Shown here: piece after piece, positions 8,039 to 49,569 of the stretch
Position numbering within the stretch: position 1 is the stretch's first letter
Layout of the letters: every line of letters starts with the position of its first letter
The notes under the pieces: generated by a model
The model's database searches: none
The model's input: the letters and a program-made list of their open reading frames with translations, nothing else
Told to the model about the DNA's origin: nothing
Origin: an uncultured Gammaproteobacteria bacterium
Lineage (GTDB): Bacteria > Patescibacteriota > Microgenomatia > Daviesbacterales > UBA10151
DNA: 64,000 bases
Direction of reading: 5' to 3'
NCBI GenBank assembly: GCA_964500725.1
Contig: CAZCNP010000001.1
Location: 64,766 to 128,765, forward strand
Program-made: the position numbers and the translations under genes

Positions 8039-8614
8039 TTAGATATTTCTTAGGTTCGCCTCAGATGTGGCTATATTAGTCTCAAAAGAGGCTCCGCTTC
8101 TTTGCTTTATAACCAAAGTCATTTTTATCCTAATTGCTGCAGTAGGAATAACTTCCCGAGGAGGAATTGCTGAGTTAAAGTATTGGAAGGTTAAGTTATC
8201 TATAGAGGTAGAAAAAATTCGGTCTGCTGTTTTTCTGGAGCTTGCAGAATCAGGAAACACTTTAAAGTGTAAGGTATTGGAATCTAGATAAAATATGTAG
8301 TAATCATAGGTGTCTGTAATAACGCTATTTGAAGAATCAATAGCAGGAACCTGTAGCACAAGTTGATTACTGCCAGATGTATAAGTATCGGAACCGTTAG
8401 TATACTGCTCAGCTACAGTATAAGCCTGCTTAATACTGCTTCTGACTACCACTAGAGCATCATTACTGTTTAAACCCATCTGCACCTTAGAAGACTGGTT
8501 GGTAAAAAGGCCTGCGCTGTTGACTATTATCACCAATAGTAATACTCCAACAATTGCAGTAATCCCCATTGCTATCAAAACCTCAACAAGGGTCAACCCT
8601 TTCTCAACTCTCAT
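8039..8614 (-). CDS. minor (pseudo)pilin, prepilin-type N-terminus
   Basis: N-terminus KGLTLVEVLIAMGITAIVGVLLL matches the class III signal (G|xTLVE). Confidence 0.7.
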   Translation of the reverse strand: MRVEKGLTLVEVLIAMGITAIVGVLLLVIIVNSAGLFTNQSSKVQMGLNSNDALVVVRSSIKQAYTVAEQYTNGSDTYTSGSNQLVLQVPAIDSSNSVITDTYDYYIFYLDSNTLHFKVFPDSASSRKTADRIFSTSIDNLTFQYFNSAIPPREVIPTAAIRIKMTLVIKQRSGASFETNIATSEANLRNI

Positions 8615-9072
8615 TGGTTTATTCCTCCTTCTCCAATCATGGTTTTTAAAGTAACATTTTGCAGTTTACTATTATCCTTCCAGGTAATTGTGACTGAAAC
8701 CTGTTTTATATGCTCTCCATTAGTACAAATCTGCTCACTGCAATTCTCAACAACTACATTTCCAGCTCCAGAAGGCAGCAAACTTAAACGGTTATCGGCA
8801 ATAGGGGAATTATCATTTACTAGATTAATGTAGCTTATTGTTCTTTTGTCCTCAATTTGTTTGGCTGCTATTTCTCTGGCCAGAGAAAGATGCCTGCTTT
8901 TACCAATTAGCATCATTGCATTAGGAATACTTGCCATCAAAAATACAATGGACCCTACGATCACTATAACCAGAAGAGACTCTATCAAAGAAAAACCACG
9001 GGAAGAATGTAAAATGTAAAATGTAAAATGTAAAATTCTTTTTGGCTTAATTGTAAATTGTACATTGTACAT
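8611..9072 (-). CDS. minor (pseudo)pilin. The listed ATG and the first ~22 codons are encoded by two heptanucleotide repeat tracts.
   Basis: RGFSLIESLLVIVIVGSIV prepilin motif. The upstream leader MYNVQFTIKPKRILHFTFYILH is encoded by (aatgtaa)x4 and (a/c)attgta x4. Confidence 0.6.
   Translation of the reverse strand: MYNVQFTIKPKRILHFTFYILHSSRGFSLIESLLVIVIVGSIVFLMASIPNAMMLIGKSRHLSLAREIAAKQIEDKRTISYINLVNDNSPIADNRLSLLPSGAGNVVVENCSEQICTNGEHIKQVSVTITWKDNSKLQNVTLKTMIGEGGINQ
9006..9033. repeat. (aatgtaa)x4 heptanucleotide tract in the minor-pilin leader coding sequence
   Basis: Four perfect copies. Confidence 0.85.
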
Positions 9073-9911: not shown

Positions 9912-10586
9912 TCATCTTAGTCCAACAGTAGTCTTAAATACAACTGGATCAATCTGGCCGGCAATCACAGCAGGCGCATTAACACCTGGACCTAAAGTAA
10001 ATGATACTGTCACACTATCTTTATAACCTGATTGTGGATTTTTGGTAAATGAACCAGTTGTAACTGACACTCCTGATTGAAGATTTGTATCAGTCAAAAT
10101 CACAATCTGTGTCATTGGATCAGCAATATTACATACTCTACTAACAAACTCTGATTCCGTTTCTTTTCTTAAAGGAGAAGAACCAGCAACATCTTGCTTT
10201 GCAGGATTATCTTGTTGTATATAACCATTAATGCTATGATCCGAAGGCTCAAGAGTAATTCTATAACGTGTGTATGTACCATTCGTGACCACTACCAAAG
10301 TGTTCGAAGAAACAATAGCAGGAGGAGATGGTAACTGCGGGCACACTACATTATCAGCGCCTCTGATAGTTTTATCCATATTATCCAAAACTGCCTGGCC
10401 ATTTTGTTTTATCACAGCCAGTATTTGTGATTTATTACTGCCTCTTAAAGTATTGGTAAAAATAGTTACTAAAATAGTCCCAACTATAGCAACAATAGCC
10501 ATAGTGACTAAAATTTCAACTAAAGTAAACCCAGCACCACTCTTTCTAATCCTGTCTTTGTGGTGCTGGGTAAACCCTTTATTCAT
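9912..10586 (-). CDS. type IV pilin-like protein with a long leader
   Basis: GFTQHHKDRIRKSGAGFTLVEILVTMAIVAIVG prepilin signal. The leader-coding DNA contains the conserved hairpin repeat. Confidence 0.75.
   Translation of the reverse strand: MNKGFTQHHKDRIRKSGAGFTLVEILVTMAIVAIVGTILVTIFTNTLRGSNKSQILAVIKQNGQAVLDNMDKTIRGADNVVCPQLPSPPAIVSSNTLVVVTNGTYTRYRITLEPSDHSINGYIQQDNPAKQDVAGSSPLRKETESEFVSRVCNIADPMTQIVILTDTNLQSGVSVTTGSFTKNPQSGYKDSVTVSFTLGPGVNAPAVIAGQIDPVVFKTTVGLR
10527..10576. repeat. pilin-leader hairpin repeat, copy A (arms aaacccagcaccac / gtggtgctgggtaaaccc)
   Basis: 11-bp perfect inverted repeat within the leader-coding region of pilin 9912..10586. The 44-nt core is identical to copy D. 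Confidence 0.8.
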
Positions 10587-11107
10587 AGTTTTCTTAATAT
10601 AGTTGTCAACTTTGATTGATGAGGTCCTGCAAAATCAGTCCACTGAACAATTACTGTAACTGTTTTTTGGGTAGTGTACGTAGTAGAATCATCTGATAAA
10701 ATTACAACTCTTTTAAACTTACCATCGCTTAATGGATCTTCTGCATTATTTGGTATATTATTTGCTGCTGTCGAAAACTGAAAGCTAGAACCACTGAACT
10801 TAAAGTAACAATTGGGCGTACAATTCGGAGAAATCTGATTTGTCCAAAGATCTGTATCCTGCCAGTTATCAATAGTTTGACTGTTCAATGTAAAACTTCC
10901 CGAGATAGAACTATTTCTATCTCTGCTGGAACGTACCTTCTCTATTCCTTCCTGGGCTAGTTTAGTGGCCTGGGCAGAATTTTTGGCAAAGGTGGCATTC
11001 CGTAAAGAAAAGATAGTAGCATAAGTTAAAGCTGCTACAACCAAAATTCCTACAGCAGAAGCTGTAACTACTTCCAGCAAAGACTGACCTGTTTCTCTCA
11101 TTGACAT
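10583..11107 (-). CDS. pseudopilin-like protein. The start is probably the internal ATG at 11107; the ORF track extends to 11194.
   Basis: MSMRETGQSLLEVVTASAVGILVVAAL class III-like signal. Confidence 0.5.
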   Translation of the reverse strand: MSMRETGQSLLEVVTASAVGILVVAALTYATIFSLRNATFAKNSAQATKLAQEGIEKVRSSRDRNSSISGSFTLNSQTIDNWQDTDLWTNQISPNCTPNCYFKFSGSSFQFSTAANNIPNNAEDPLSDGKFKRVVILSDDSTTYTTQKTVTVIVQWTDFAGPHQSKLTTILRKL

Positions 11108-11177
11108 TTGATTCCCTGTTTGATAATATATAAATACTAAACATGAAGCAGATATTTCGTATGTCTGCTTCTTTTTT

Positions 11178-11813
11178 TTATCCTTTTTCCTCAAATTTTA
11201 TATCTTTCTCTAGCCTAACGAAATCTCTAAAGTTACTGCCTGCAAATTGTCTTATTTCTCTGGCTGTCCTTGGACCTCTTGCTAACACAATTACATCCTT
11301 GCCAACTTCTTTAAGATACTTAAGGACAGGAAGAAAATCTCCATCACCTGATAATACAAGCACTCTGTCAAAATTATCTTTTTCTTTCATTAAATAAAAG
11401 GCCATCTCAACATCACAATTAGCTTTCCTTTGGGTGCTGCCATTTTCTTGATAATATAACTTTACAGGTTTTAGATATAACCTATACCCAAATTTCTTAA
11501 GCTTCAGATAAAACTTAATCCTACTAAGATGCCTTGAGAGTAAAATCAACTTAGCTTCATCCAGCTTTTTCCCATTCTGTTCAATATAGTTCTCAAGCTT
11601 CGTTTTTAATTTTTCAATCGGCACTGTTTCATTTTTTAGGTAATCATATTTGTACCCATGAACTTCTACCCCGCCAAAATAATACACTTCCGAAATATTA
11701 TATCTTTTTTTAAGGTACGTTATAAGCTTTGCATAATCAATCTTCCACCCTAAACTCTTTTCTCCACCGTAAAAGAGATTTGAAGCATCTATAAAAGCGT
11801 AGGTTTTATTCAT
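11178..11813 (-). CDS. NYN (LabA/PIN-like) domain protein
   Basis: AFIDASNL ... VLVLSGDGDFLPVLKYL match NYN-domain motifs. Confidence 0.6.
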   Translation of the reverse strand: MNKTYAFIDASNLFYGGEKSLGWKIDYAKLITYLKKRYNISEVYYFGGVEVHGYKYDYLKNETVPIEKLKTKLENYIEQNGKKLDEAKLILLSRHLSRIKFYLKLKKFGYRLYLKPVKLYYQENGSTQRKANCDVEMAFYLMKEKDNFDRVLVLSGDGDFLPVLKYLKEVGKDVIVLARGPRTAREIRQFAGSNFRDFVRLEKDIKFEEKG

Positions 11814-11831
11814 TAGTATATAAACTTCTTG

Positions 11832-13040
11832 CTAGAAAAGAGAACACCCTGCATTACCATTATATGAAGCAGTTATCTCAGCAGGAGTCAAAGCTCTATT
11901 ATAAATCCTAACTTCATCTATAGAACCATTAAAAAATTCTCCATTACCTCCATACTGACCAATATAAACATTCCGGGTAGCATCATAAAGCATGGGTGTA
12001 CTAGAGGCATAAGTGCCACTTCCTACTTGATTGCCATTAGCATAGATGGTATAGCCAGTGGTAGTAACTACATAGGTGATATGGTACCAAAAGTCTATAG
12101 AATAGCTGAAAGTGGCATCTGCTCCAGTTGTTATCCATGCAGAACCAGTACCAATATCTCCATGAATAGTGTTGCCGTTTTGCAGCTTCATATCAAAAGT
12201 GTAATCACCTCCGCTTCTGGTACCAAAAATAGCCCCAGTAGAATTATCCGCAGGCTTCACCCAAGCAGATATTGTAAACGGACCAGACATAGATCCTAAT
12301 GCATTAGCACCTAAAGAAACATAGTTGCTTCCATTAAATTGCCCTGCGCTACCAATCTTACCATTGGGATCCCAACTAGCTGTACTCCAGGTTCCAGTAT
12401 GGCCATAACCACTTTTATCTGCAACTTTGGTATCTGTTCCTTCATTAAAATCCCAATAACCAACTAAACCATTTAGCTGTGAACCAGAAGCATCACAGGT
12501 AGGCCTTGTTTTAAGGGTTCCCCCGGAAGTCATGGAAATAGATTTAGTGCTTGTAGTCCTAGTATTTTCCAGAGAAACTGCAAAAGAAGTGCATTTTGGC
12601 TCTCCGAAGTTCATCGTACCCGTCAGAAGATCAAAATTTATTGTATAAGCCGATCCTGGAAATCCCGGGTCTGACGGGCAAGCAACACCAACTCTTGATA
12701 TACTGTCTATTTGGATATTTGAATCTATCTTACTAATATCCAATTCTTTCTTTGAATAAAAAGTCCCTGATTCCTCACAACCTAAAGTTACAGTCTTACG
12801 GTCATCTGAAAATACTACTTGCCATTTAGCGCTGAAAGCGCTCTGGCATTTGTTATTAGAGCTGGCATTTGTCTGTGCTTGTCTTATTAAACCTTGAATA
12901 TCAGAAGTTGCGCTTTTTAATTTCTGGTCTTCTCCAAAATTGGCAAAATTAGCAAAAGCAAAAACTCCTGTTATAGCCATAATGGTCACAACCACCAAAA
13001 GCTCAACTAAAGTAAAGGCATTAGGGACAGCTTTAGCCAT
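11832..13040 (-). CDS. type IV pilin fused to a C-terminal LamG/concanavalin-like domain
   Basis: N-terminus AFTLVELLVVVTIMAITGV. C-terminus GNGEFFNGSIDEVRIYNRALTPAEI is the LamG hallmark. Confidence 0.7.
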   Translation of the reverse strand: MAKAVPNAFTLVELLVVVTIMAITGVFAFANFANFGEDQKLKSATSDIQGLIRQAQTNASSNNKCQSAFSAKWQVVFSDDRKTVTLGCEESGTFYSKKELDISKIDSNIQIDSISRVGVACPSDPGFPGSAYTINFDLLTGTMNFGEPKCTSFAVSLENTRTTSTKSISMTSGGTLKTRPTCDASGSQLNGLVGYWDFNEGTDTKVADKSGYGHTGTWSTASWDPNGKIGSAGQFNGSNYVSLGANALGSMSGPFTISAWVKPADNSTGAIFGTRSGGDYTFDMKLQNGNTIHGDIGTGSAWITTGADATFSYSIDFWYHITYVVTTTGYTIYANGNQVGSGTYASSTPMLYDATRNVYIGQYGGNGEFFNGSIDEVRIYNRALTPAEITASYNGNAGCSLF

Positions 13041-13046
13041 GTTTTA

Positions 13047-13078
13047 ATTGTACATTGTACATTGTACATTGTACATTG
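13047..13078. repeat. (attgtac)x4.5 heptanucleotide tract between a pilin stop and the pilin-LamG start
   Basis: Same unit as 9049-9076. Lies 6 nt upstream of the ATG of 11832..13040. Confidence 0.85.
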
Positions 13079-13079
13079 C

Positions 13080-13538
13080 TTAAGGTGGAGTAACTACAAA
13101 ATTATAATCACTAAAATCAGGCGCAAGAGGCCATGAAGTACCACAGCTGACTGGAAGAGATTGCGGGGGAGAAGGAGGGTTTTCCAGCTTGGCATAAAGA
13201 CAATAGCTTGTGCAATTATTTCCTGCTGCATCACAACCTAAAGGAACATAACCATATCCTTGAGGAATTTGGGTCATATAATTTCTTCGGCTACCCGCAC
13301 AAGGAGATCCTTGGCTAATATTACATAAATAACCAATCTGCCCCGGATAAGCATCCGCTTCTGTCACATATTGTTCCAGAGCCAGCTGAATGGATTTTAA
13401 ATCTGCCTGCCTTTTGCTGTCCCTGCCTTGTTTTAAGACAGAGGAATATAAAATCAAACCAATAGCAGAAAGTATAGCAATAATGCTGATTGTTATTAAA
13501 AGCTCAATTAAGGTGAAACCTTTTTTTTGGGCAGGCAT
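13080..13538 (-). CDS. type IV pilin (PilA/GspG-like)
   Basis: KKGFTLIELLITISIIAILSAIGL...RQADLKSIQLALEQY. Confidence 0.8.
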   Translation of the reverse strand: MPAQKKGFTLIELLITISIIAILSAIGLILYSSVLKQGRDSKRQADLKSIQLALEQYVTEADAYPGQIGYLCNISQGSPCAGSRRNYMTQIPQGYGYVPLGCDAAGNNCTSYCLYAKLENPPSPPQSLPVSCGTSWPLAPDFSDYNFVVTPP

Positions 13539-13575
13539 AACTTTAATTTAACACATAATCTTAAACTTTTGAACT

Positions 13576-13995
13576 TCAGTTTTCATAATATAAATCTAAA
13601 AAATCTTTTGCAGAGATAATCTCTATGTTTTTAAACTTTTTAAGAGAGAGTAGATGCTTTTTATCCCCGGAAATAATATACTCAGCTTTTGCCTCCTGGG
13701 CAGCTTCTAAAATTTTATTGTCCTTGGGATAGGTTTGTATCACTTTAACAATAACCTGGGGAGAAACCAGAATAGCAAACTCACCAATTCCTTTTATAAC
13801 TTCCTTTACTTCTTCCGCTGACCAACCAAATTTATTCTGCAGGTTTCTGGCAACCTCCAATAATATTGCATTACTTGTAAAAAGTTCTATGTCTCCTTTT
13901 TTAGCCAGTTCTAAACATTGCCTTGGGTTACCACCAAAAATAATTGCAGAAAGGTAAATATTGGCGTCAAAAACAACTTTAACCTTTTGCTTCAT
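13576..13995 (-). CDS. PIN-domain toxin (putative TA toxin, TIGR00305-like)
   Basis: VVFDANIYLSAII...ELFTSNAILLEV...ISGDKKHL is the PIN acidic-residue pattern. Overlaps the upstream RHH gene. Confidence 0.6.
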   Translation of the reverse strand: MKQKVKVVFDANIYLSAIIFGGNPRQCLELAKKGDIELFTSNAILLEVARNLQNKFGWSAEEVKEVIKGIGEFAILVSPQVIVKVIQTYPKDNKILEAAQEAKAEYIISGDKKHLLSLKKFKNIEIISAKDFLDLYYEN

Positions 13996-14224
13996 GGAGT
14001 ATACGGTCTATATCATCTTCCGAAGTTATCTTAAAATCCCTGGCAGTTTTCGCACCTCTTTTGTAAATCCTCTGCCATCTCTCTTCCTCAGAAGCATTAT
14101 CTATTAAAGAAGAGATAAAAGCGCTGCGGGATTGACCGCTCGTACTACGGCTTTTCTCCAGTTTCAGAGCCACTCTTTGAGGCATAGATATAGAAATTAC
14201 ATGGGTTGTTCTTTGAATTTTCAT
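13979..14224 (-). CDS. ribbon-helix-helix (CopG-like) antitoxin
   Basis: VISISMPQRVALKLEK matches an RHH beta-strand and helix. Its 3' end overlaps the PIN gene by 17 nt. Confidence 0.5.
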   Translation of the reverse strand: MKIQRTTHVISISMPQRVALKLEKSRSTSGQSRSAFISSLIDNASEEERWQRIYKRGAKTARDFKITSEDDIDRILHEAKG

Positions 14225-14284
14225 ACAGTGTAATAATAATTTATTTCTTAAGTTCTGTCAATATAACAAATTCAGTCAATTGTT

Positions 14285-14740
14285 TTATGGTGATGAGACT
14301 GAATAATGATAAGTACTTGCGCCAGATATAGTATTAGGGCATTCTGTAACTAAGTTATTATTGGATGAATTTTCCATTTCAGCAAATAAGCAATATTTAG
14401 TGCAATTATTACTAACATTATCACATCCTGTTGCATTTGCTGAAGTAGCAGAAACATACAAAGGAATATATAAATATGGGTGATTTGTAGTATCTACTGC
14501 CTCAGTTGGAACCTGGTTTAAATAAGGAGACCATGAAGGAGCAGGAAGAGATAAAGGATATGAGGTATTATCCCTATAATATTGTTCCAGGGCAGACTGG
14601 ATCTGTTTTAAATCAGATTTTCTTTGAGAGTCTCTGGCATTTTTAGTTAAATTATCATAAGAGGCAATAGAAATTGCCATCAAAATAGCAATTATAGAAA
14701 TAGTCACCAAAAGTTCAATTAAAGTAAAACCATTTTTCAT
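14285..14740 (-). CDS. type IV pilin
   Basis: MKNGFTLIELLVTISIIAILMAISIA...DLKQIQSALEQYY. Confidence 0.8.
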   Translation of the reverse strand: MKNGFTLIELLVTISIIAILMAISIASYDNLTKNARDSQRKSDLKQIQSALEQYYRDNTSYPLSLPAPSWSPYLNQVPTEAVDTTNHPYLYIPLYVSATSANATGCDNVSNNCTKYCLFAEMENSSNNNLVTECPNTISGASTYHYSVSSP

Positions 14741-14747
14741 ACCTTAT

Positions 14748-14782
14748 TCAATTGTCAATTGTCCAATGTTAATTGTCAATTG
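14748..14782. repeat. (tcaattg)x5 imperfect heptanucleotide tract immediately upstream of pilin 14285..14740
   Basis: CAATTG palindromes at 7-bp spacing. Confidence 0.8.
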
Positions 14783-14788
14783 TTTTAA

Positions 14789-16678
14789 TTAATTGGGAGT
14801 AAAGTTTATGGTAATAGTATAGATAGAATCATCATTTACTACATTTGAGAGGGAATCCTTATAGTAAGTTAGCACATCGCCATTACCATTCATCTGCTGG
14901 GTAACTGTTCTGGTTTTTCGAACACGATCACCTGCACCAACAGTCACTTCTTGTAAGTCAAATCCTGGAAAATCATTATATTGCTTAACGCGATCTAATC
15001 TATAAAGCCAACTATAATCCATATAAATAACACCAAATTTAAATCCATTGCCTCCTGTACCTACCTTCGTTTCGGTTACTGTCATAATTGCCAGACCTTT
15101 CCTGGGTGCCCGCCAAAAAATAACTGCTGTGTCAATCTGTCCTCCTAGAGAATGGCTTGGGGATAACATCATATAACTCGCTCCCCAAATATTACTATTA
15201 GGTGCTTTCCAATAAGGCTGTCCTGAAGGCACATCCATCCAAATTTCCGGTCCAGCTTCATAATTGGCCTGCTGTGTTGTGCCCCCATATTGCCAGACAT
15301 CTTGGCTGTAGTGGTAAAACCAGCAACGACTCCAGACAGGGTTATCTCCTGAGCATAAAGTAACATTTCCTAGGTTACCTGAATATTCGGAAGCCAAAGT
15401 ATGCGTTGATGGACAAGGCAAATTGGTACAAGTCCTTGAACTGTTACCTCCATCTAAGCTACTACAATCTGTGCCTTCGTTTGCAGGGGAGGGATTAGAA
15501 CAAGTTCTAGTTTGTGTGCCACTAGTACCACAAGCAGTTGCTGAACAAGCACTCCAATCAGACCATCCTCCATTAACAGGACATGCTTGAGTATTGCAAG
15601 CCACAGTTTCTGTTAAACCTCTTGTTACACCATCTGACAATAAACATTGAGATCCTCCATTGGCAGGAGAGGGATTTGTACAGGTTCTAGTTTGTGTGCC
15701 ACTAGTACCACAAGCTATGGCTGAACAACTACTCCAGGCAGTCCAAACACCATCAATCCTCTCCACCGGCCCTTGCTTTAATTTAATACTGACATCATAA
15801 CCTCGGCCATTACAAAGATAGCTTGAGTTATAATAATAAGGGCTTATAGCACCTGTGCTAGCGATAGTACTTGTGGAGTCTCGACTACTATAGTAAGCAA
15901 ATCCTCCTATACCCGGACATGTTCCATAACAGGAAGCCGTACAAGGTGTACACCGGTTTAAAATATTACTTAAATCAGAATTGCTTGGGCAACTCATGTA
16001 GACTGTTTTATTTGCTAGGCCGGCATCCGATGTTCTGCAATGGATGGCAGAAACAGTACTTAACATTGGCACAGTTGGACAAGCTGGACTAAGATCATAG
16101 GGAGTTGTTGTTCCACTTGAACCAATGGTAGAAACTGCTCCTGAAGGCAAAGTAGAACCATTATCATAGACTCCACCTCTAGAAATAGCAGCAATCAGAT
16201 TTTGAGCAGAAGCCCCTACAGATGTTTTACAATAACAATAATTCTGATTAGTTCCAGAAGCAAGACTATTTATACACTGCTGAGGAGTTACACCAGGAGG
16301 CGCGCTATCTAAAATACTACATGCTACAAATGACTTCCCGTCTGAACTGATAACATAATCATTGTCTTTAGGTGGAGTAGGCAAAGTGTTATTTACAAAA
16401 AATGAGGCAAGACTAGATAAACTGCTTAAAACAGGATAGCTAGCTGTTTTAATATTGTATTTTGACTCCATAACCTTGGCTATAGCATCAATATCTGCTT
16501 TTCTTTTAGTATCCCTGGCCTTTTGCCCAACTCCACTATACATTGTCAACCCAACCACACTTAACACCCCAATAATGGCTACTACTATCAAAAGCTCAAC
16601 TAAAGTAAACCCAGCACCACTTTTAGAACTCGGAAATGTGGTGCTGGGTAAACCCACACTTCTTTTTCTCATTTTCAT
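14789..16678 (-). CDS. pilin-like protein carrying two thrombospondin type-1 (TSP1) repeats and a Cys-rich C-terminal domain
   Basis: Leader SGAGFTLVELLIVVAIIGVL, plus WTAWSSCSAIACGTSGTQTRTCTNPSPANGGSQC and WSDWSACSATACGTSGTQTRTCSNPSPANEGTDC. Confidence 0.75.
   Translation of the reverse strand: MKMRKRSVGLPSTTFPSSKSGAGFTLVELLIVVAIIGVLSVVGLTMYSGVGQKARDTKRKADIDAIAKVMESKYNIKTASYPVLSSLSSLASFFVNNTLPTPPKDNDYVISSDGKSFVACSILDSAPPGVTPQQCINSLASGTNQNYCYCKTSVGASAQNLIAAISRGGVYDNGSTLPSGAVSTIGSSGTTTPYDLSPACPTVPMLSTVSAIHCRTSDAGLANKTVYMSCPSNSDLSNILNRCTPCTASCYGTCPGIGGFAYYSSRDSTSTIASTGAISPYYYNSSYLCNGRGYDVSIKLKQGPVERIDGVWTAWSSCSAIACGTSGTQTRTCTNPSPANGGSQCLLSDGVTRGLTETVACNTQACPVNGGWSDWSACSATACGTSGTQTRTCSNPSPANEGTDCSSLDGGNSSRTCTNLPCPSTHTLASEYSGNLGNVTLCSGDNPVWSRCWFYHYSQDVWQYGGTTQQANYEAGPEIWMDVPSGQPYWKAPNSNIWGASYMMLSPSHSLGGQIDTAVIFWRAPRKGLAIMTVTETKVGTGGNGFKFGVIYMDYSWLYRLDRVKQYNDFPGFDLQEVTVGAGDRVRKTRTVTQQMNGNGDVLTYYKDSLSNVVNDDSIYTITINFTPN
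15485..15750. repeat. two ~85-bp, ~90%-identical DNA segments 180 bp apart, encoding the two TSP1 repeats
   Basis: 15485-15570 versus 15665-15750. Also similar to 56105-56215 in the 1094-aa protein gene. Confidence 0.75.
16607..16655. repeat. pilin-leader hairpin repeat, copy B
   Basis: Same arms with a different loop. Here read in a different frame (GLPSTT...SGAGF) within pilin 14789..16678. Confidence 0.8.
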
Positions 16679-16920
16679 AATCCAATCCTTTTTTTTAATT
16701 CTCTTATTGAATTACCACTATATTTTAGTCTTTTTTCTCTTAATCTAGCTAAATTTTCCATATTGAAAGCTTCGTAATAATGAAGAGTCCATGGCTTATA
16801 TCGTTTAGTAGAAAATACTTCACCATTATTATGCTCCAATAAACGCCTTTCAAGATCGTTTGTAGATCCAATATAAATCTGATTATTAGACATACTAACT
16901 AAGATATAAACATAATACAT
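16675..16920 (-). CDS. GIY-YIG nuclease (homing-endonuclease-like, stand-alone domain)
   Basis: MYYVYILVS...QIYIGSTNDLERRLLEHNNG is the GIY-YIG motif block. Confidence 0.75.
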   Translation of the reverse strand: MYYVYILVSMSNNQIYIGSTNDLERRLLEHNNGEVFSTKRYKPWTLHYYEAFNMENLARLREKRLKYSGNSIRELKKRIGL

Positions 16921-16922
16921 AA

Positions 16923-16953
16923 GTGGTGCTGGGTAAAACCCTTTTTAGGCATT
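16923..16953 (-). pseudogene. orphan pilin start fragment (MPKKGFTQHH...) left upstream of the GIY-YIG gene
   Basis: The start context gggcattac and the right hairpin arm gtggtgctgggtaaaaccc are duplicated from pilin 18965..20023 (MPKNSGFTQHH). Confidence 0.5.
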
Positions 16954-16963
16954 ACTTCTATCT

Positions 16964-17008
16964 TGTCATTTTAGTCAGCAAATATGCAAGTATTTGTGGT
17001 AAAATTAG
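16964..17008 (+). promoter_or_regulatory. ~45-bp upstream element (promoter/operator candidate) of AbiEii-like cassette 1
   Basis: gtcattttagtcagcaaatatgcaagtatttgtggtaaaatt is repeated almost identically at 17943-17988 and contains a TAAAAT -10-like box. Confidence 0.45.
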
Positions 17009-17011
17009 ATT

Positions 17012-17305
17012 ATGCAACAAGCATCTATGAACAAGTTCTTGGCTTCGCCGATAAAACAGGCATTTTGGGATTATAATTTTACCGAACACCAGCTTCTGAA
17101 AAAATTGGCAAAAGGCACAAGAGAAGAAAAAACATGGATTATAGGCAGAATTTTGGAAAATCTTCCTTTTAATTCTATATGGAAATATACAACACCAAAA
17201 CAAGTAAAAGAAATCTTTCCATACCTTCACCTGCGCCCCAAACTTAAACAAATCTGGAGCTATACACTCTCTTTGTGGGGAAAATATGAAAAAACCTCTC
17301 ACTAA
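17012..17305 (+). CDS. small partner protein of the AbiEii-like nucleotidyltransferase (putative antitoxin/regulator; not AbiEi-like)
   Basis: 97 aa, overlaps the downstream NTase gene. Paralogous to 17991..18203 (WDYN...ILENL / INYGNL). Confidence 0.5.
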   Translation: MQQASMNKFLASPIKQAFWDYNFTEHQLLKKLAKGTREEKTWIIGRILENLPFNSIWKYTTPKQVKEIFPYLHLRPKLKQIWSYTLSLWGKYEKTSH

Positions 17306-17939
17306 ACTTCAGGAGGAGGTTCTTAAAAACTTTTTTGCCCAGCCAATTGGAAAATCCTACTTTTTGACTGGTGGCACTGCGCTTTCCGGATTTTATTTTT
17401 ACCATCGTGATAGTATTGATCTTGACTTTTTCACCTTTGAAACTATTGAAATTGAGCCTGTAAGACAGCTGCTCGAGATGGTTGCAAAAGAAGCCGGTTT
17501 ATCTTTGGATCATCGCGTGGCAACATCCGGATATCATAAATTTTTTCTGACAGGCAAAAAGGAGGAGCTTAAAATTGATCTGGTCAGAGAACAAAAGGTC
17601 CATTTTGGGGAAATTAAGACTTTTGGCAAAATAAAAGTGGATTCTATAGAAAACATTGGCAGTAATAAAATTACCGCAATTTTTGGCAGGACAGAGGCAA
17701 AAGACTTCATTGATCTTTATTTAATCTTGCAGAAGAAACTATTTACTTTTGAAAAACTCCTAAAAGATGCTAAAAAGAAGGATTTGGGTCTTTCTGAATT
17801 TTATCTGGCCCATATGCTTCTTGAAGTAAAAAATCTAAAAAATTTTCCCAAGATGTTAATTCCTTTTGACAAATCAACCATGAAAAACTATTTTATCTTG
17901 TTGGCAAACAGACTTCTAGTAGAAGCGAAGCCAGAATAA
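17286..17939 (+). CDS. AbiEii/DUF1814-family nucleotidyltransferase (type IV TA toxin-like)
   Basis: FLTGGTALSGFYFYHRDSIDLDFF N-terminal NTase motif. Confidence 0.65.
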   Translation: MKKPLTKLQEEVLKNFFAQPIGKSYFLTGGTALSGFYFYHRDSIDLDFFTFETIEIEPVRQLLEMVAKEAGLSLDHRVATSGYHKFFLTGKKEELKIDLVREQKVHFGEIKTFGKIKVDSIENIGSNKITAIFGRTEAKDFIDLYLILQKKLFTFEKLLKDAKKKDLGLSEFYLAHMLLEVKNLKNFPKMLIPFDKSTMKNYFILLANRLLVEAKPE

Positions 17940-17942
17940 ACA

Positions 17943-17988
17943 GTCATTTTAGTCAGCAAATATGCAAGTATTTTATGGTAAAATTATA
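17943..17988 (+). promoter_or_regulatory. second copy of the cassette upstream element
   Basis: Near-identical to 16964-17008. Confidence 0.45.
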
Positions 17989-17990
17989 GA

Positions 17991-18203
17991 GTGAAAACAC
18001 CTTACTTTATATGGGATTACAATATTAAAAATAATTGGCAGCCTAAAACCCAGGAGCAATGGGAATGGTTTTTAGTACGGAAGATTAATTATGGAAACCT
18101 CAAAGGTTTGAAAAAGGAAACTATCGCGGAATACTTTCCAAAAATAAAACAGATGCTCGATCCTGGCAAACGGGAGATGCTTGCGTACTTTCTAAACCAA
18201 TGA
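17991..18203 (+). CDS. small partner protein of the AbiEii-like NTase (paralog)
   Basis: 70 aa, overlaps the downstream gene start. Confidence 0.5.
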   Translation: MKTPYFIWDYNIKNNWQPKTQEQWEWFLVRKINYGNLKGLKKETIAEYFPKIKQMLDPGKREMLAYFLNQ

Positions 18204-18874
18204 ATTTAACAAAACTGCAAAAACTGGCAATAGAACTGTTAGCGCATTCTCCACTCAGGAACATTTTCTACTGGACTGGCGGAACGTTACTTGCATCTCA
18301 CTATTTACATCATCGGGAATCTATTGATCTTGATTTCTTTAGCGAAAAAAAGTTTTCTCTTGAAGAAATTAACCGTTTCACCCAGGAACTTAAAGAGAAA
18401 GGCGGTTTCGCAACCGTACATTACCAGAAAATATTCGATAGATATGAATTTCTGTTTGAAAATGAAGAACACCTACGGATAGAGTTTGTCTACTATAATC
18501 ACGAGAAAAAGACACTGAGAAAACGAGAACTTCTTAATGGAGTACACATTGATTCTTTAGATGATATTGCTGCAAATAAAGTAATGGCATACTTTGACAG
18601 AAACGAACCAAAAGATTTATTTGATATCTATTTCCTTATTCATAAATCAGGATTCAATCCTTTAAAATTATTGAAACTTGTCAAGCAAAAATTTGGCATT
18701 TCTTTTAACGAAGCATCTTTTTGGAGTGAGGCATTTAAATGTTTTCCCCTTCTTCATACTTTAAAACCCCTGATGCTTCAAAAAGAAGAGGACAAACAAA
18801 AACAATTACTCAAAACCATTGAAGATTATTTCCAAGAAGGCTCCGCAAGATTTCTACATAAAAACCTAGAATAA
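18200..18874 (+). CDS. AbiEii/DUF1814-family nucleotidyltransferase (paralog)
   Basis: YWTGGTLLASHYLHHRESIDLDFF. Confidence 0.65.
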   Translation: MNLTKLQKLAIELLAHSPLRNIFYWTGGTLLASHYLHHRESIDLDFFSEKKFSLEEINRFTQELKEKGGFATVHYQKIFDRYEFLFENEEHLRIEFVYYNHEKKTLRKRELLNGVHIDSLDDIAANKVMAYFDRNEPKDLFDIYFLIHKSGFNPLKLLKLVKQKFGISFNEASFWSEAFKCFPLLHTLKPLMLQKEEDKQKQLLKTIEDYFQEGSARFLHKNLE

Positions 18875-18888
18875 ATTAAAAATCTAAC

Positions 18889-18957
18889 CAATAATTGCTA
18901 CTACTATCAAAAGCTAGCTCAACCAGGGTAAACCCCTGGGGAGTTTTTTCATGCATT
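18889..18957 (-). pseudogene. pilin 5' fragment (MHEKTPQGFTLVELAFDSSS...), truncated
   Basis: DNA similar to the 5' end of pilin 14789..16678 (ctactactatcaaaagct...gtaaaccc); reaches a stop after about 25 codons. Confidence 0.5.
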
Positions 18958-18964
18958 AATCTTA

Positions 18965-20023
18965 TTATATTAAAGGAATAAGGTAATCAAGGCTTTGCCT
19001 TGAAAAAATCATATATCCAATCCCTGGAGAAATTGCAAAACCATCGCCTCCACCACCCACTGAAAATACCGAAAAACTCGCACCTTCCAGTTGAAAAATC
19101 TGAGTTGCACACCCAGTACAACCTGTGTTTATAGCGTTCAATAATGTTTTTGCTTTATTTATGCTGGCGGGAACAGCAGCAAAGGATATTCCTGTATATC
19201 CAGAAAGTAAAGAGATCTTAGTTTGTACAGCCTGTACCCCTTGAATTTGTGAATTAGATGACCCATCAGCGTTGATAAAAAAAGCCATTCCTACAGTGAC
19301 CGGAGAAGTGTTGTTTTGACAACCATCAGAACAGTCTGACAAATAATAGTCTCCATTAGCTGCAACCGTCGCAATAGATAAAATCCCATTTTCTTCTCCT
19401 CCTAAATCTGTATAAAATTTTCCGAGTGTATAAGAACTACCTTTATCTACCGTTAAACCGACAAAGTTGAAACCTGCTGTGAGGTTAATAGTTTGGAAAG
19501 CTGGAGCAGGATATGTGGGCGGACCACCACCACCGGAGGAAGTTTTGCAAAAACAATTAACAGAATCTTGCGCATTAACACATGAATTATTACCAATGTT
19601 ACTCCCCAAAGGAGCGCAAACAGAAAAATTATCTCCAGAAACAGTATCTCCAGAACCATTTGTATTATTATAGTTAGCATTTATATCTGGTCCTACTACA
19701 ATATAGGAAGTATTAGTTGTTCCATCGGGGGTAGGAATTTTTCCAGAGGCAAACATAGCTTCTGTTAATGGTTTATATCCACCCTGGCCACCATTTGCAG
19801 TAGGATCATAATTTGTTTCATAGGCTTTTTTAATAGCATCAATATCTGCTCTTCTTTTGGCATCCAGGGTTGAATTCCTGACTGCTTGAAAAGACACAAA
19901 ACCTACTACAGATAAAATACTGATTATGGAAATAACTACTAAAAGTTCAATGAGGGTAAAACCAGCACCACTCTTTCTAATCCTGTCTTTGTGGTGCTGG
20001 GTAAAACCAGAGTTTTTGGGCAT
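18965..20023 (-). CDS. type IV pilin-like protein with a long leader and a Gly/Asn-rich C-terminal domain
   Basis: MPKNSGFTQHHKDRIRKSGAGFTLIELLVVISIISILSVVGF. The 5' ~110 bp after the TM helix is near-identical to 20070..21152. Confidence 0.75.
   Translation of the reverse strand: MPKNSGFTQHHKDRIRKSGAGFTLIELLVVISIISILSVVGFVSFQAVRNSTLDAKRRADIDAIKKAYETNYDPTANGGQGGYKPLTEAMFASGKIPTPDGTTNTSYIVVGPDINANYNNTNGSGDTVSGDNFSVCAPLGSNIGNNSCVNAQDSVNCFCKTSSGGGGPPTYPAPAFQTINLTAGFNFVGLTVDKGSSYTLGKFYTDLGGEENGILSIATVAANGDYYLSDCSDGCQNNTSPVTVGMAFFINADGSSNSQIQGVQAVQTKISLLSGYTGISFAAVPASINKAKTLLNAINTGCTGCATQIFQLEGASFSVFSVGGGGDGFAISPGIGYMIFSRQSLDYLIPLI
19957..20007. repeat. pilin-leader hairpin repeat, copy D
   Basis: ccagcaccactctttctaatcctgtctttgtggtgctgggtaaaacc within pilin 18965..20023. 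Confidence 0.8.
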
Positions 20024-22427: not shown

Positions 22428-23072
22428 TCAAAGGTATTTTTTGACTTCATCTTCAAAAAAATGCTTTATCTCTTCCGGCTGGGGCAGGGAAACTTTTGCA
22501 ACCGGTGTAACAGAAAAACTGGATATATCACCAAAGTAAACCAGTTGTTCCAGGAAAAGTTTCTCACTAAAAGCACCCCCATAAACCTTTTCAGATACTG
22601 AAATAATTTGTTTTATATCAATATGACCCTGTTTTAAAATCGTGTACAAGTCAAAGTAATCCCTGTATTCTCCTCTTCTGCCAATTGTGTATGCTTTTTG
22701 TATAGCAATTTCCGGTATGGAAAATAGGGAAAGCCCTTTTCCTGTTTTCAAAATTTGGAAGTGCGGTTTGAAAGGATAGTAAAGAAAAGTAATTTTTATA
22801 CCATTTTTTGTAAATAAGGTTAGCTCGTCTAATGTGTCAATAACAACATTATCTATTGCCAATACCTGGGAAAGTTTTTCCAGTAATTTTTTGGGAATCT
22901 GGGAGGTACTAAAAAAATCAAAATCAAACGATTTACGGTGGGCAAGCTGAAGAGCAAGCGCAGTTCCTCCAGCTAACACAAACTCTTCAGTAAAGGGAAT
23001 GATTTTTTGTAATAAATCTCTCCTCTTATCATCCAAGATGCCGGGGTGTACTTTTGAGATATTTTTGTTCAT
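22428..23072 (-). CDS. AbiEii/DUF1814-family nucleotidyltransferase (third copy)
   Basis: FVLAGGTALALQLAHRKSFDFDFF. Confidence 0.6.
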   Translation of the reverse strand: MNKNISKVHPGILDDKRRDLLQKIIPFTEEFVLAGGTALALQLAHRKSFDFDFFSTSQIPKKLLEKLSQVLAIDNVVIDTLDELTLFTKNGIKITFLYYPFKPHFQILKTGKGLSLFSIPEIAIQKAYTIGRRGEYRDYFDLYTILKQGHIDIKQIISVSEKVYGGAFSEKLFLEQLVYFGDISSFSVTPVAKVSLPQPEEIKHFFEDEVKKYL

Positions 23073-31549: not shown

Positions 31550-32620
31550 ATGAAAAAAATATATTTTACTGTTGGGCCATCACAAATTTATCCAACTCTA
31601 TATAAACATTTAAACAAAGCTATAAAAGAGGATATTTTCTCTTTAAACCATAGGGGGGAAGAGTTTAAAAAGTTATTTACCAGCACCACAGAAGGACTAA
31701 AAAAACTTCTTAATATTCCAGCAAACTTTCAAATATTCTTTGTTTCTTCTGCTTTAGAAGGAATGGAAAGAACAATTCAGGGCTGCTCCGAGAAAACATC
31801 TTTCCATATTATTACTGGTTCTTTTGGAAAAGCTTGGGCCAACTATGCTTCTCAACTGGGCAGAAATGTCTTAACTTACAATATAGACCCAACCCAAAAG
31901 GCTGAACTTTCAAATATTAAAATTCCTCAAAGAGCAGAAATAATTTGTATAACCCAAAATGATACTTCCACAGGCTATTGGATTCCTATGGATGAAATTA
32001 TTAAATTAAAGAAGAAGTATCCTGAAAAGCTAGTTGCTATTGATGTAGTTTCCTCAGTTCCTTTTGTGACCATTGATTATAAATATATAGATATAGCTTT
32101 TTTCTCAGTGCAAAAAGGTTTTGGACTGCCGGCAGGACTGGGGGTAATAATTGCCAGCCCCAAAGCTTTAGAAAAAACTGAAAAGTTACTTAAAAACAAA
32201 AGTGTTATCGGCAGTTATCATAGTTTTAAACACCTTTCTGAAAAAGCATTAAACTTACAAACTCCAGAAACACCTAATGTTTTAAATATTTATCTTCTAA
32301 ATAGCGTTATAAAAGATATGTTAAAAATAGGAATTAATAATATCAGGCAGGATATGGATAAAAAAGCTAAAGCCCTTTATGAACTTTTTGAAAATCATCA
32401 TCTATATAAACCATATGTTGCCAATAAAGAATTTAGATCTCCAACAACAGCAGTGTTTGATGTTAAAGGAACCTCAGAAAGCTTAAGAAAAAAATTAAGC
32501 CAAAAGGGCTTTATTGTTGGGGCAGGATATGGGGATAATAAATTAAATCATATAAGGGTTGCCAACTTCCCAGCCCACACCTACAAAGACACCTTACAAC
32601 TACTAAAATATATTGCATGA
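31550..32620 (+). CDS. serC: phosphoserine aminotransferase-like class V aminotransferase
   Basis: FTVGPS, LNHRGEEF, PANFQIFF and FSVQKGFGLPAGLGVII match the SerC blocks (FSSGPA, SHRGKEF, AQKNIGPAGL). Confidence 0.65.
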   Translation: MKKIYFTVGPSQIYPTLYKHLNKAIKEDIFSLNHRGEEFKKLFTSTTEGLKKLLNIPANFQIFFVSSALEGMERTIQGCSEKTSFHIITGSFGKAWANYASQLGRNVLTYNIDPTQKAELSNIKIPQRAEIICITQNDTSTGYWIPMDEIIKLKKKYPEKLVAIDVVSSVPFVTIDYKYIDIAFFSVQKGFGLPAGLGVIIASPKALEKTEKLLKNKSVIGSYHSFKHLSEKALNLQTPETPNVLNIYLLNSVIKDMLKIGINNIRQDMDKKAKALYELFENHHLYKPYVANKEFRSPTTAVFDVKGTSESLRKKLSQKGFIVGAGYGDNKLNHIRVANFPAHTYKDTLQLLKYIA

Positions 32621-48645: not shown

Positions 48646-49569
48646 TTAGTCTTTACTATTACCTGAATGAAATGCTTTATGCGCATCTTTTAAATGGGCA
48701 TTGGTAACATGAGTATAAATTTGGGTGGTTGAGATATTGGAATGTCCCAACATTTCTTGCACAGACCTAATATCAGCTCCATTTATTAACAAATCTGTGG
48801 CAAAAGAATGCCTTAAACTATGAGGAGTTGCCTTAACTGAAAACCCTAAGGCTTTAACATATTTTTCTACAACTCTTTCAATAGATCTGGTAGTAAGCCT
48901 CATTGACTCACCTCCATTTTCAGGATTTACTTTTCCTTGAAATCTAATAAATAAAGGCTTAAAAGTGTCTTTACGGGCATATAAATAAGTCTCTATGGCT
49001 GAAGCTGCAGAATCTGAAATAAAAACCACTCTTTCTTTACCCCCCTTACCAACTATGCCAAACTCTTTTCTTTGTAAATTAATAGTATCTCTATTTAGGC
49101 AAGCCAATTCTGATACCCTAAGTCCTGTTGAAAATAGAGTTTCCAAAATAGCTTTATCACGCAATCCATCTTTTTTTGTTACATCTGGAGCCTCCAATAA
49201 AGATTTTAATTGTGACTCATCCAGCACCTTCAAAGGTGCTGGATCTGTTTCTCCCAGCTCAACTTTTTCAGGGGATAGAGTAGAGACATCAATCCTTGCC
49301 AGGTATCTTAAAAATGCCCGCAGAGCTATCATAAAATAATTTTGAGTGATTCTTTTTAAAGGTTTACCCGTTTGCGGATCCGTCCATCTAGACAGGTAAA
49401 GCCTGTATTTTCTAATTAGATTTAAATCTATATTCCTAGGGTCTATATCCCCAGCAAATTCTAAAAATCTTTTAAGATAATGATCGTAATTTCTAATAGT
49501 GAGCTGGGAAGCGTTTCTTTCCAGCTCAAGATATTCTAGAAAGTCTGTAATTAAGGCAGCAAGGGTCAT
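48646..49569 (-). CDS. tyrosine recombinase (XerC/XerD-like)
   Basis: C-terminal HSLRHSFATDLLINGADIRSVQEMLGHSNISTTQIYTHV with catalytic R..H..R..Y. Confidence 0.8.
   Translation of the reverse strand: MTLAALITDFLEYLELERNASQLTIRNYDHYLKRFLEFAGDIDPRNIDLNLIRKYRLYLSRWTDPQTGKPLKRITQNYFMIALRAFLRYLARIDVSTLSPEKVELGETDPAPLKVLDESQLKSLLEAPDVTKKDGLRDKAILETLFSTGLRVSELACLNRDTINLQRKEFGIVGKGGKERVVFISDSAASAIETYLYARKDTFKPLFIRFQGKVNPENGGESMRLTTRSIERVVEKYVKALGFSVKATPHSLRHSFATDLLINGADIRSVQEMLGHSNISTTQIYTHVTNAHLKDAHKAFHSGNSKD

Follow-up and report, generated by a model that had tools for sequence, protein, structure and literature searches.

Hairpins in the pilin genes of a Patescibacteria genome as the probable ends of a very small GIY-YIG mobile element

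The window analyzed here, a 64-kb stretch of DNA from Ca. Daviesbacteria (Patescibacteria), carries a hairpin within the 5' end of each of three genes for type IV pilins; its arms, CCCAGCACCAC and GTGGTGCTGGG, form an 11-bp inverted pair. Comparisons with other genomes and metagenomes indicate that these arms most probably mark, as terminal inverted repeats, the ends of very small GIY-YIG mobile elements, a family that is common in Patescibacteria. The full element consists of an arm, 2-10 nt, one 81-aa single-domain GIY-YIG open reading frame (ORF), a few nucleotides and the opposite arm, about 280 bp in total, and miniatures of 35-50 bp are ORF-less and generally take the form TNNA (CCCAGCACCAC TTT..AAA GTGGTGCTGGG) TNNA. 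Terminal inverted repeats, a fixed 4-bp duplication and presence or absence at orthologous sites, all hallmarks of transposable elements, were found in this family, with the orthologous comparison of filled and empty sites consisting of one pair (locus B of the window and locus L199 of another genome, both described below) plus the family comparison.

When both strands of the window were counted, arm CCCAGCACCAC gave six exact matches, with 0.48 expected, and two further matches with one mismatch; none of 100 shuffled sequences reached eight. One of the one-mismatch arms, at 31679, has no partner and looks like a chance match. The inverted-repeat hairpins in three pilin 5' ends and the additional solitary arm described in an earlier sequence-only reading of this DNA were thus recovered. 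All of the features concerned lie on the minus strand. Miniature A (10530..10570; arms 10530-10540 and 10560-10570, 19-nt loop, no ORF) occupies the leader-coding part of the type IV pilin-like gene at 9912..10586, and its target-site duplication, TTTA on the gene strand, is at 10526..10529 and 10571-10574. Miniature B (16610..16648, 39 bp; arms 16610-16620 and 16638-16648, 17-nt loop) lies downstream of a full GIY-YIG element in a large pilin-like gene with thrombospondin type 1 repeats (14789..16678), and is flanked by TTTA at 16606-16609 and 16649-16652. Miniature D (19961..20001; arms 19961-19971 and 19991-20001, 19-nt loop) is located in the pilin-like gene at 18965..20023, between TTTA copies at 19957-19960 and 20002-20005, and the last base of its right arm (19971-19961) is changed from G to T, which is synonymous.

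With the element in round brackets, the gene strand at locus A reads ATGAATAAAGGG TTTA (CCCAGCACCAC aaagacaggattagaaaga GTGGTGCTGGG) TTTA CTTTAGTTGAA, and at locus D ATGCCCAAAAACTCTGGT TTTA (CCCAGCACCAC aaagacaggattagaaaga GTGGTGCTGGt) TTTA CCCTCATTGAA. The two loci share an identical 44-nt stretch across the element, as the sequence-only reading had stated, and identity falls at its borders, the flanks being unlike; A and D are recent miniature copies. Their common loop may derive from the 3' end of the GIY-YIG ORF, although the resemblance (KDRIRKS compared with KKRIGL*) is suggestive only. The peptide read through the hairpin is GFTQHHKDRIRKSGAGF in A and D and VGLPSTTFPSSKSGAGF in B, in agreement with the frames given earlier (TQHH and PSTT, respectively).

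The prepilin motif G|F-T-L-[IV]-E is present in each of the host proteins, and the PF07963 N-methylation motif was matched in 3/3, starting at residue 17 in pilin A and at residues 22 and 19 in the other two, always past the insert. Excising 41 bp and one TTTA from A yields the canonical short leader MNK-G|FTLVEIL, and excising the bracketed DNA and one TTTA also yields a canonical short leader, MPKNS-G|FTLIELL. Other pilins of the same window cluster have unoccupied GGTTTTAC sites. Additionally, in about 55 homologues of pilin D the leader is short and lacks the insert (e.g., ..PKKNSG|FTLIELL), with arm-like inserts in only a handful, and an in-genome paralogue of pilin D (P0138) has the leader MKKNA|FTLIELL, also lacking an insert.

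Locus B holds both a full element and a miniature. The full element (16653..16933, minus strand, 281 bp) has its left arm at 16933-16923, ending 2 nt before the nuclease start codon, its 81-aa ORF at 16675-16920, and a decayed right arm at 16653-16659 (GTG----TGGG, 4 nt lost), with TTTA at 16934-16937 and 16649-16652. The solitary half-site noted earlier at 16923-16941 is the left end of this element. The original start codon of pilin B (16950..16952; ATG CCT AAA AAG GGT TTT AC, encoding MPKKGFT) is now separated from the pilin by the GIY-YIG element, and today's pilin ORF begins at 16678, its ATG sharing bases with the stop codon of the nuclease gene (ATGA). The upstream half, on the gene strand, reads ATGCCTAAAAAGGGT TTTA (CCCAGCACCAC TT ATG..81-aa GIY-YIG..TGA..aagaaGTG----TGGG) TTTA, and the sequence continues after this middle TTTA as (CCCAGCACCAC atttccgagttctaaaa GTGGTGCTGGG) TTTA CTTTAGTTGAG. 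The right arm lacking 4 nt, followed by the 39-bp miniature and a further TTTA, therefore points to two successive insertions into one TTTA.

The orthologous locus L199 provided the filled and empty comparison. Its GIY-YIG protein is 85% identical to the window protein, and the downstream pilin closely matches pilin B in its N-terminal part. The full element in L199 is intact, GGT TTTA (CCCAGCACCAC TT ATG..TGA AAA GTGGTGCTGGG) TTTA CCCTAGTTGAG, and its pilin ORF begins anew at a GTG that shares bases with the stop codon of the nuclease, with the leader (M)KSGAG|FTLVELL; the same restart arrangement, but with ATGA, was seen in L200. The 43 bp of miniature and duplication present in window locus B are missing from the L199 pilin, and the presence of miniature B therefore varies between genomes. 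The sequence-only reading had placed the hairpins at the junctions of a combined GIY-YIG/AbiEii insertion. The arms do bracket the GIY-YIG gene, but none were found at the borders of the AbiEii genes (17286-18874), which are encoded on the opposite strand with a pilin gene on either side, and on this ground the AbiEii genes were excluded from the insertion.

The window GIY-YIG protein shows 100% identity to a "GIY-YIG nuclease family protein" of Ca. Daviesbacteria. PF01541 was matched over residues 1-69 of 81 aa (E 3.9e-16), no other domain was found, and all of the residues invariant in the family alignment (Y5, G18, R26, H30, E62 and G69) are kept. The best solved structure was the UPF0213 protein 1ywl, a weak match (E 0.0095). 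By tblastn, the protein matched a GIY-YIG protein of Sinorhizobium that is encoded between hairpin repeats, at 47.7% identity over residues 3-66 only (E 8e-8). Homologues often have arm-encoded extensions such as NPAPLF, GFTQHHF, PSTTF and SGAG.

The association of the arms with the nuclease gene was evaluated in other genomes and metagenomes. A metagenome scan for GIY-YIG relatives returned 501 sequences, of which 80 loci were kept, and 81 GIY-YIG ORFs with enough flanking sequence entered a bracketing test that required an inverted-repeat score of at least 12. Arms bracketed 59/81 homologous ORFs, compared with 0/81 when the flanks were shuffled (maximum score 10), and the tie to the adjacent GIY-YIG gene that the sequence-only reading had suspected is well borne out. 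The bracketed elements measure 276-390 bp, and their inverted ends 11-25 bp. About 20 arm variants were distinguished (CCCAGCACCAC, CCCCGCACC, CCCCTTACCAC, CCCCCCAC and CCGAGCACC, among others), each with its complement at the opposite end some 280 bp away.

An exact-pattern scan for the arms across genomes, with one genome per species, listed matches at more than 118 loci. Among the matches listed, more than 70 were solo hairpins in other genomes, and full palindromes were found nearly exclusively in Patescibacteria, across many classes; the few others were in metagenome-assembled genomes (MAGs) labelled Spirochaetota, Planctomycetaceae and Gammaproteobacteria, labels that may cover mis-binned contigs. 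One-sided matches in high-GC genomes look like chance. Only two matches were found in 2.9 million viral contigs, and phage carriage is therefore not the main route of spread. Some MAGs with labels other than Patescibacteria hold repeated copies of the hairpin in which longer flanking stretches are conserved as well (e.g., cataaagccacg[...]caaggacagcg; L045, L053, L060, L062 and L111, all from a Spirochaetota-labelled MAG, and L008, L093 and L101), and these copies may be part of a larger repeat unit or come from mis-binned contigs.

These data also bear on the possibility that the arms bound miniature elements which a conventional transposase encoded elsewhere moves in trans, e.g., one that is IS5- or piggyBac-like with 4-bp T..A duplications, and that the GIY-YIG gene is passenger cargo. 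Duplications of that type are characteristic of DDE transposases, and arm-bounded elements of 100-210 bp with cargo other than GIY-YIG do exist. In this size class, L083 retains a C-terminal GIY-YIG remnant and is a deletion derivative of the full element, and others contain unrelated sequence. However, long-range arm pairs bracket only the GIY-YIG ORF (270-390 bp) in about 200 loci, no 0.6-3 kb transposase element with the same ends was seen among them, the arm variants follow the GIY-YIG protein clade (protein identity is 59% within an arm class and 49% between classes), and the GIY-YIG active-site residues are invariant. Within the element itself the sole ORF is that of the GIY-YIG protein, with no transposase of a known class (DDE, HUH, serine or tyrosine) encoded. 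We consider movement by an unlinked transposase unlikely.

Target sites were characterized in 81 unique miniatures, with a permutation control for exact 4-bp repeats abutting the arms. Such a repeat was present in 36/81 (permutation mean 4.4, maximum 11), a further 11/81 had one with a single mismatch, and none extended to 5 bp. The repeat was of the form T..A (TNNA) in 34/36, preceded by G in 21/36 and followed by C in 26/36. Full elements in pilin and intergenic contexts had TTTA (13), TTGA (3) or TTCA (1), and in 20/54 full elements an exact 4-nt repeat was located at the boundary or no more than 3 nt from it. On this sequence pattern the elements appear to insert at (g)TNNA(c) and to duplicate 4 bp. 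With respect to the interior of the miniatures, the loops start with TTT and end with AAA in 66/80, and most are near-perfect long palindromes with 0-5 unpaired bases, which hints at 'perfecting' by template switching or at a fold-back intermediate.

The sequence-only reading had offered the hairpin as a possible homing site. Under classical homing, the GIY-YIG enzyme would cut element-free pilin alleles (sites GGGTTTAC) and recombinational repair would copy the element, the hairpin serving as the recognition site. GIY-YIG homing endonucleases do exist, the elements show a strong bias toward one site (the Gly-Phe-Thr codons of prepilins), and copies in RNA genes lack a duplication, with the same rRNA site occupied in different genomes. 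Against this, the protein has 81 aa and no DNA-binding domain and scores 29 bits with the group I intron endonuclease model TIGR01453, for which the cut-off is 56, and no introns were found in the window. Inverted ends with a 4-bp duplication occur at unrelated sites (TTGA, TCAA, TATA, TACA and TTCA), duplications are also found on ORF-less copies, and GIY-YIG insertions in rRNA genes of the candidate phyla radiation (CPR) were judged to lie outside homing by the authors who described them (PMC11270868). The combination of terminal inverted repeats, target duplication and unrelated target contexts makes homing improbable.

The preference of the mobile element for pilin genes can be related to its target. 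The prepilin cleavage site holds the insertion target because the codons for Gly(-1)-Phe(+1)-Thr(+2), GGN TTY ACN, contain gTNNAc. The right end of the element, AAAA GTG GTG CTG GG, reads K-S-G-A-G, a leader ending in Gly(-1), and the duplicated TTTA rebuilds Phe(+1)-Thr(+2), so that an intact cleavage site always follows the inserted sequence. Prepilin peptidase would therefore strip the added peptide, as its known cleavage rule predicts, and the pilin would survive. Full elements in pilin genes had one of two outcomes: in some, window locus B among them, the element provides the pilin with another start codon, which shares bases with the stop of the nuclease (ATGA or GTGA); in others, an in-frame fusion has the nuclease translated as a prepilin leader.

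The second outcome was assessed with a profile search of 1.84 billion cluster representatives, which gave 21,178 relatives at E <=0.001 and 4,611 at E <=1e-10. Among the 148 best-scoring cluster representatives, 79 were prepilin fusions of the form GIY-YIG(1-81)-linker-KSGAG|FTLIE, equal to 79/89 of those of at least 150 aa, and one fusion was confirmed in DNA (L085, 3622-4521). These 79 in-frame fusions therefore suggest that the nuclease is translated in many lineages as a prepilin leader of about 100 aa. As a separate observation, the prepilin peptidase gene at 4925-5749 of L083 has an in-frame CCAGCACCAC hairpin (..FIQHHSWHMSGAGIT..) directly ahead of its conserved EIPFGPFL segment, and GIY-YIG elements adjoin prepilin peptidase genes in L039 and L200.

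Selection at the protein level for a long, conserved leader (GFTQHH...SGAG) has next to no probability as the reason for the repeat. The right arm is read as ..SGAG before Phe in all 22 prepilin-embedded copies, and A and D encode an identical peptide, but the left arm is read in three frames in the same 22 copies (TQHH 5, PSTT 13 and YPAPL 4), the loops vary, and further copies reside in non-coding DNA and in RNA genes. The three frames and the non-coding copies exclude such a peptide. The proposal of the sequence-only reading that conservation acts on nucleotides and not on the peptide is thereby upheld, the search for the arms across genomes having found the repeat at sites other than those encoding one peptide.

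Rfam searches placed elements within 16S rRNA (L157, L183 and L198), 23S rRNA (L149, L158, L163, L168, L170, L179 and L190) and RNase P RNA (L155, 1342-2078, and also L151). These copies carry variant arms of the family. The 16S insertions are at the native 5'-proximal hairpin between CAAGTCGA and GGCGAAC, and the RNase P RNA insertions are immediately upstream of AGGAAAGT, where there is a native hairpin. At the same 23S site, elements with different arms were observed (L190 and L163; L168 and L158). Many miniatures were also located outside pilins, several of them on TTGAC(A) boxes followed by TATAAT-like hexamers. The RNA-gene copies were co-oriented with the host gene in 12/12 cases, and prepilin-embedded full elements were in sense orientation relative to the pilin in 22/22, an orientation bias that would fit either strand-specific insertion into single-stranded DNA or a dependence on host transcription.

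The distribution over RNA genes and intergenic sites is also informative about a host function for the hairpin, that is, a structure in mRNA or DNA selected for control of pilin expression, as the sequence-only reading had proposed for translation, or for pilin-gene recombination leading to pilin variation. Pilin 5' ends with the hairpin fold as RNA at -20 to -27 kcal/mol, compared with about -4 in pilins without an insert, the hairpin begins 15-23 nt past the start codon, and three of about ten pilin genes in the one cluster carry it; moreover, the NTS repeats of Neisseria cluster at surface-protein genes (PMC11893778). As DNA, the hairpins fold at -10.6 to -15.1 kcal/mol (z -4.8 to -7.9), and either strand can form them. 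However, the same element is found in rRNA genes, RNase P RNA genes and intergenic sites and carries duplications, most homologous pilins lack the hairpin, and neither a recombinase nor silent cassettes adjoin it. The strong 5' hairpin is then a consequence of insertion and not its reason, and a role in pilin regulation or variation is very unlikely. An Rfam search of the window gave no match, so that the hairpin is not a known RNA motif; an intrinsic terminator was also rejected, as the T-run is within the stem (arm-TTTT...AAAA-arm) and not 3' of it.

The closest known system is that of the Ssn nucleases (cd10448) and the hairpin repeats termed NTS/SRM that accompany them (Chenal et al., Nat Commun 2025, PMC11893778). 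Like the window family, it combines a single-domain GIY-YIG protein of about 80-95 aa with a gene placed between hairpin-forming inverted repeats and gene-less repeats dispersed in the genome. Ssn binds hairpin repeats in single-stranded DNA only and cuts a few nucleotides upstream, and it also cuts when two separate strands form the stem (PMC11893778). Its authors described the layout as insertion-sequence-like and left mobility as a hypothesis, and target-site duplication and Patescibacteria go unmentioned in the paper (PMC11893778). The window family, unlike Ssn, has exact inverted ends with a 4-bp target duplication and both filled and empty sites, and these provide sequence evidence on the question of mobility that was left open there. 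No match to the SRM consensus HGTCWYN(0-2)YYVSBRHN(0-5)WNVSBRGN(0-2)RNCYNB was found on either strand of the window or of hairpins A, B and D. NTS repeats are rarely in genes (2%, PMC11893778), whereas those of the window family occur within protein-coding and RNA genes, often as prepilin fusions. The family therefore differs from Ssn/NTS in repeat sequence, protein C-terminus, evidence of duplication and life inside genes.

Insertions that are not introns and that code for GIY-YIG proteins have been reported at scattered positions in CPR 16S and 23S rRNA genes (PMC11270868) and are probably the same elements as the window family. That report does not describe inverted ends, miniatures, duplication or a pilin niche, whereas the family arms were seen here on the RNA-gene copies. 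In the literature searched for the arm sequence, for pilins together with GIY-YIG and for Patescibacteria miniatures, no description of the family was found, and a full-text search for the arm sequences found unrelated eukaryotic primers only.

Short palindromic non-autonomous copies are known from Rickettsia palindromic elements and from miniature inverted-repeat elements. Rickettsia palindromic elements, like the window miniatures, are tolerated in-frame in protein-coding genes. The window miniatures are much smaller (35-50 bp) than either, their presumed partner is a GIY-YIG nuclease and not a known transposase, and their tolerance, unlike that of the Rickettsia elements, would rest on proteolytic removal of a leader. 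IS200/IS605 and REP elements depend on an HUH tyrosine transposase and have neither terminal inverted repeats nor target duplication. The window family has no ORF for such an enzyme and does have inverted ends and a duplication, which separate it from that group, as its 81-aa protein with no DNA-binding domain, inverted ends and duplication separate it from GIY-YIG homing endonucleases. It nevertheless resembles IS200/IS605 and REP elements in its hairpin ends, tiny size, dispersed palindromes related to the ends and orientation bias (see also PMC11893778).

By analogy with Ssn, the nuclease itself would bring about mobility in the mobile family described here. The GIY-YIG protein would recognize the stem formed by the arms, which would be local in a miniature and formed between ends about 280 nt apart in the full element, and would nick at the stem base; host repair or ligation would then complete movement. 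Such host functions would be needed because a GIY-YIG hydrolase is not known to ligate. A resident nuclease could also mobilize miniatures in trans.

Several observations weigh against transposition by these elements. To our knowledge, GIY-YIG hydrolases have no strand-transfer or ligation activity, and the case for transposition is one made from sequence. A duplication is not visible in 34/81 miniatures or in any RNA-gene copy, and the 19-nt, non-palindromic loop of A and D lacks the inner TTT...AAA flanks of the 66 miniatures that have them; short-patch gene conversion might conceivably account for A and D being identical. The likeness to the Ssn-type protein is confined to residues 3-66, the C-terminal segment being different, and the repeats are outside the published Ssn consensus. 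Additionally, the frequencies are biased because exact arms only were scanned and the counts are those among the matches listed.

A more far-reaching proposal is that the 81-aa nuclease is the only protein the element needs, which would define a new class of insertion sequence of about 280 bp with no DDE, HUH, serine or tyrosine enzyme, in which removal of the leader by prepilin peptidase acts as a protein-level 'splicing' that heals the host gene. We put this forward tentatively, its chances being somewhat below even. We know of no autonomous bacterial element as small as about 280 bp, and new transposition chemistry could be possible within such a unit. Prepilin peptidase cuts at the cytoplasmic face of the membrane, and the nuclease may therefore be released where imported single-stranded DNA enters.

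The elements may persist in pilin genes because the added peptide is placed upstream of the rebuilt cleavage site and would be lost along with the leader; in structured RNA genes, one idea is that they are tolerated through arms that extend a helix. Altogether, the family would explain many odd Patescibacteria gene calls, including GIY-YIG-pilin "fusions", long pilin leaders and non-intron rRNA insertions. In these bacteria type IV pili are important for taking up DNA and for attaching to hosts, and repeated insertion in the 5' ends of their genes could therefore affect pilin expression and diversification.

Additional features of the window were recorded. A perfect 26-nt palindrome at 49219-49244, ATCCAGCACCT-TTGA-AGGTGCTGGAT, lies in a tyrosine-recombinase-like ORF (48646..49569, minus strand), where it is read DPAPLKVLD; its arm resembles the family variant ATCCAGCACC, no repeat flanks it, and it is either an old insertion or native sequence. 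The pilin cluster is interspersed with toxin-antitoxin or defence-like genes (11178-14224, 17012-18874 and 22428-23072), including three AbiEii-family toxins (two after small ORFs), a PIN-domain protein with a weak HicB-like partner and an NYN-domain protein. The pilin-like protein of locus B (14789-16678, 629 aa) has two thrombospondin type 1 repeats (PF00090, E 3.2e-6), which are unexpected in a bacterial pilin. Finally, TGTACAAT / TTGACAAT repeats are found immediately upstream of two pilin start codons (about 13041-13065 and 14741-14765, minus strand), and four copies of TTTTACA with two of TGTACAAT lie within the 5' end of the ORF at 8611..9072 (8980-9072, minus strand). These repeats may represent a promoter or operator element held in common, or sequence prone to slippage.

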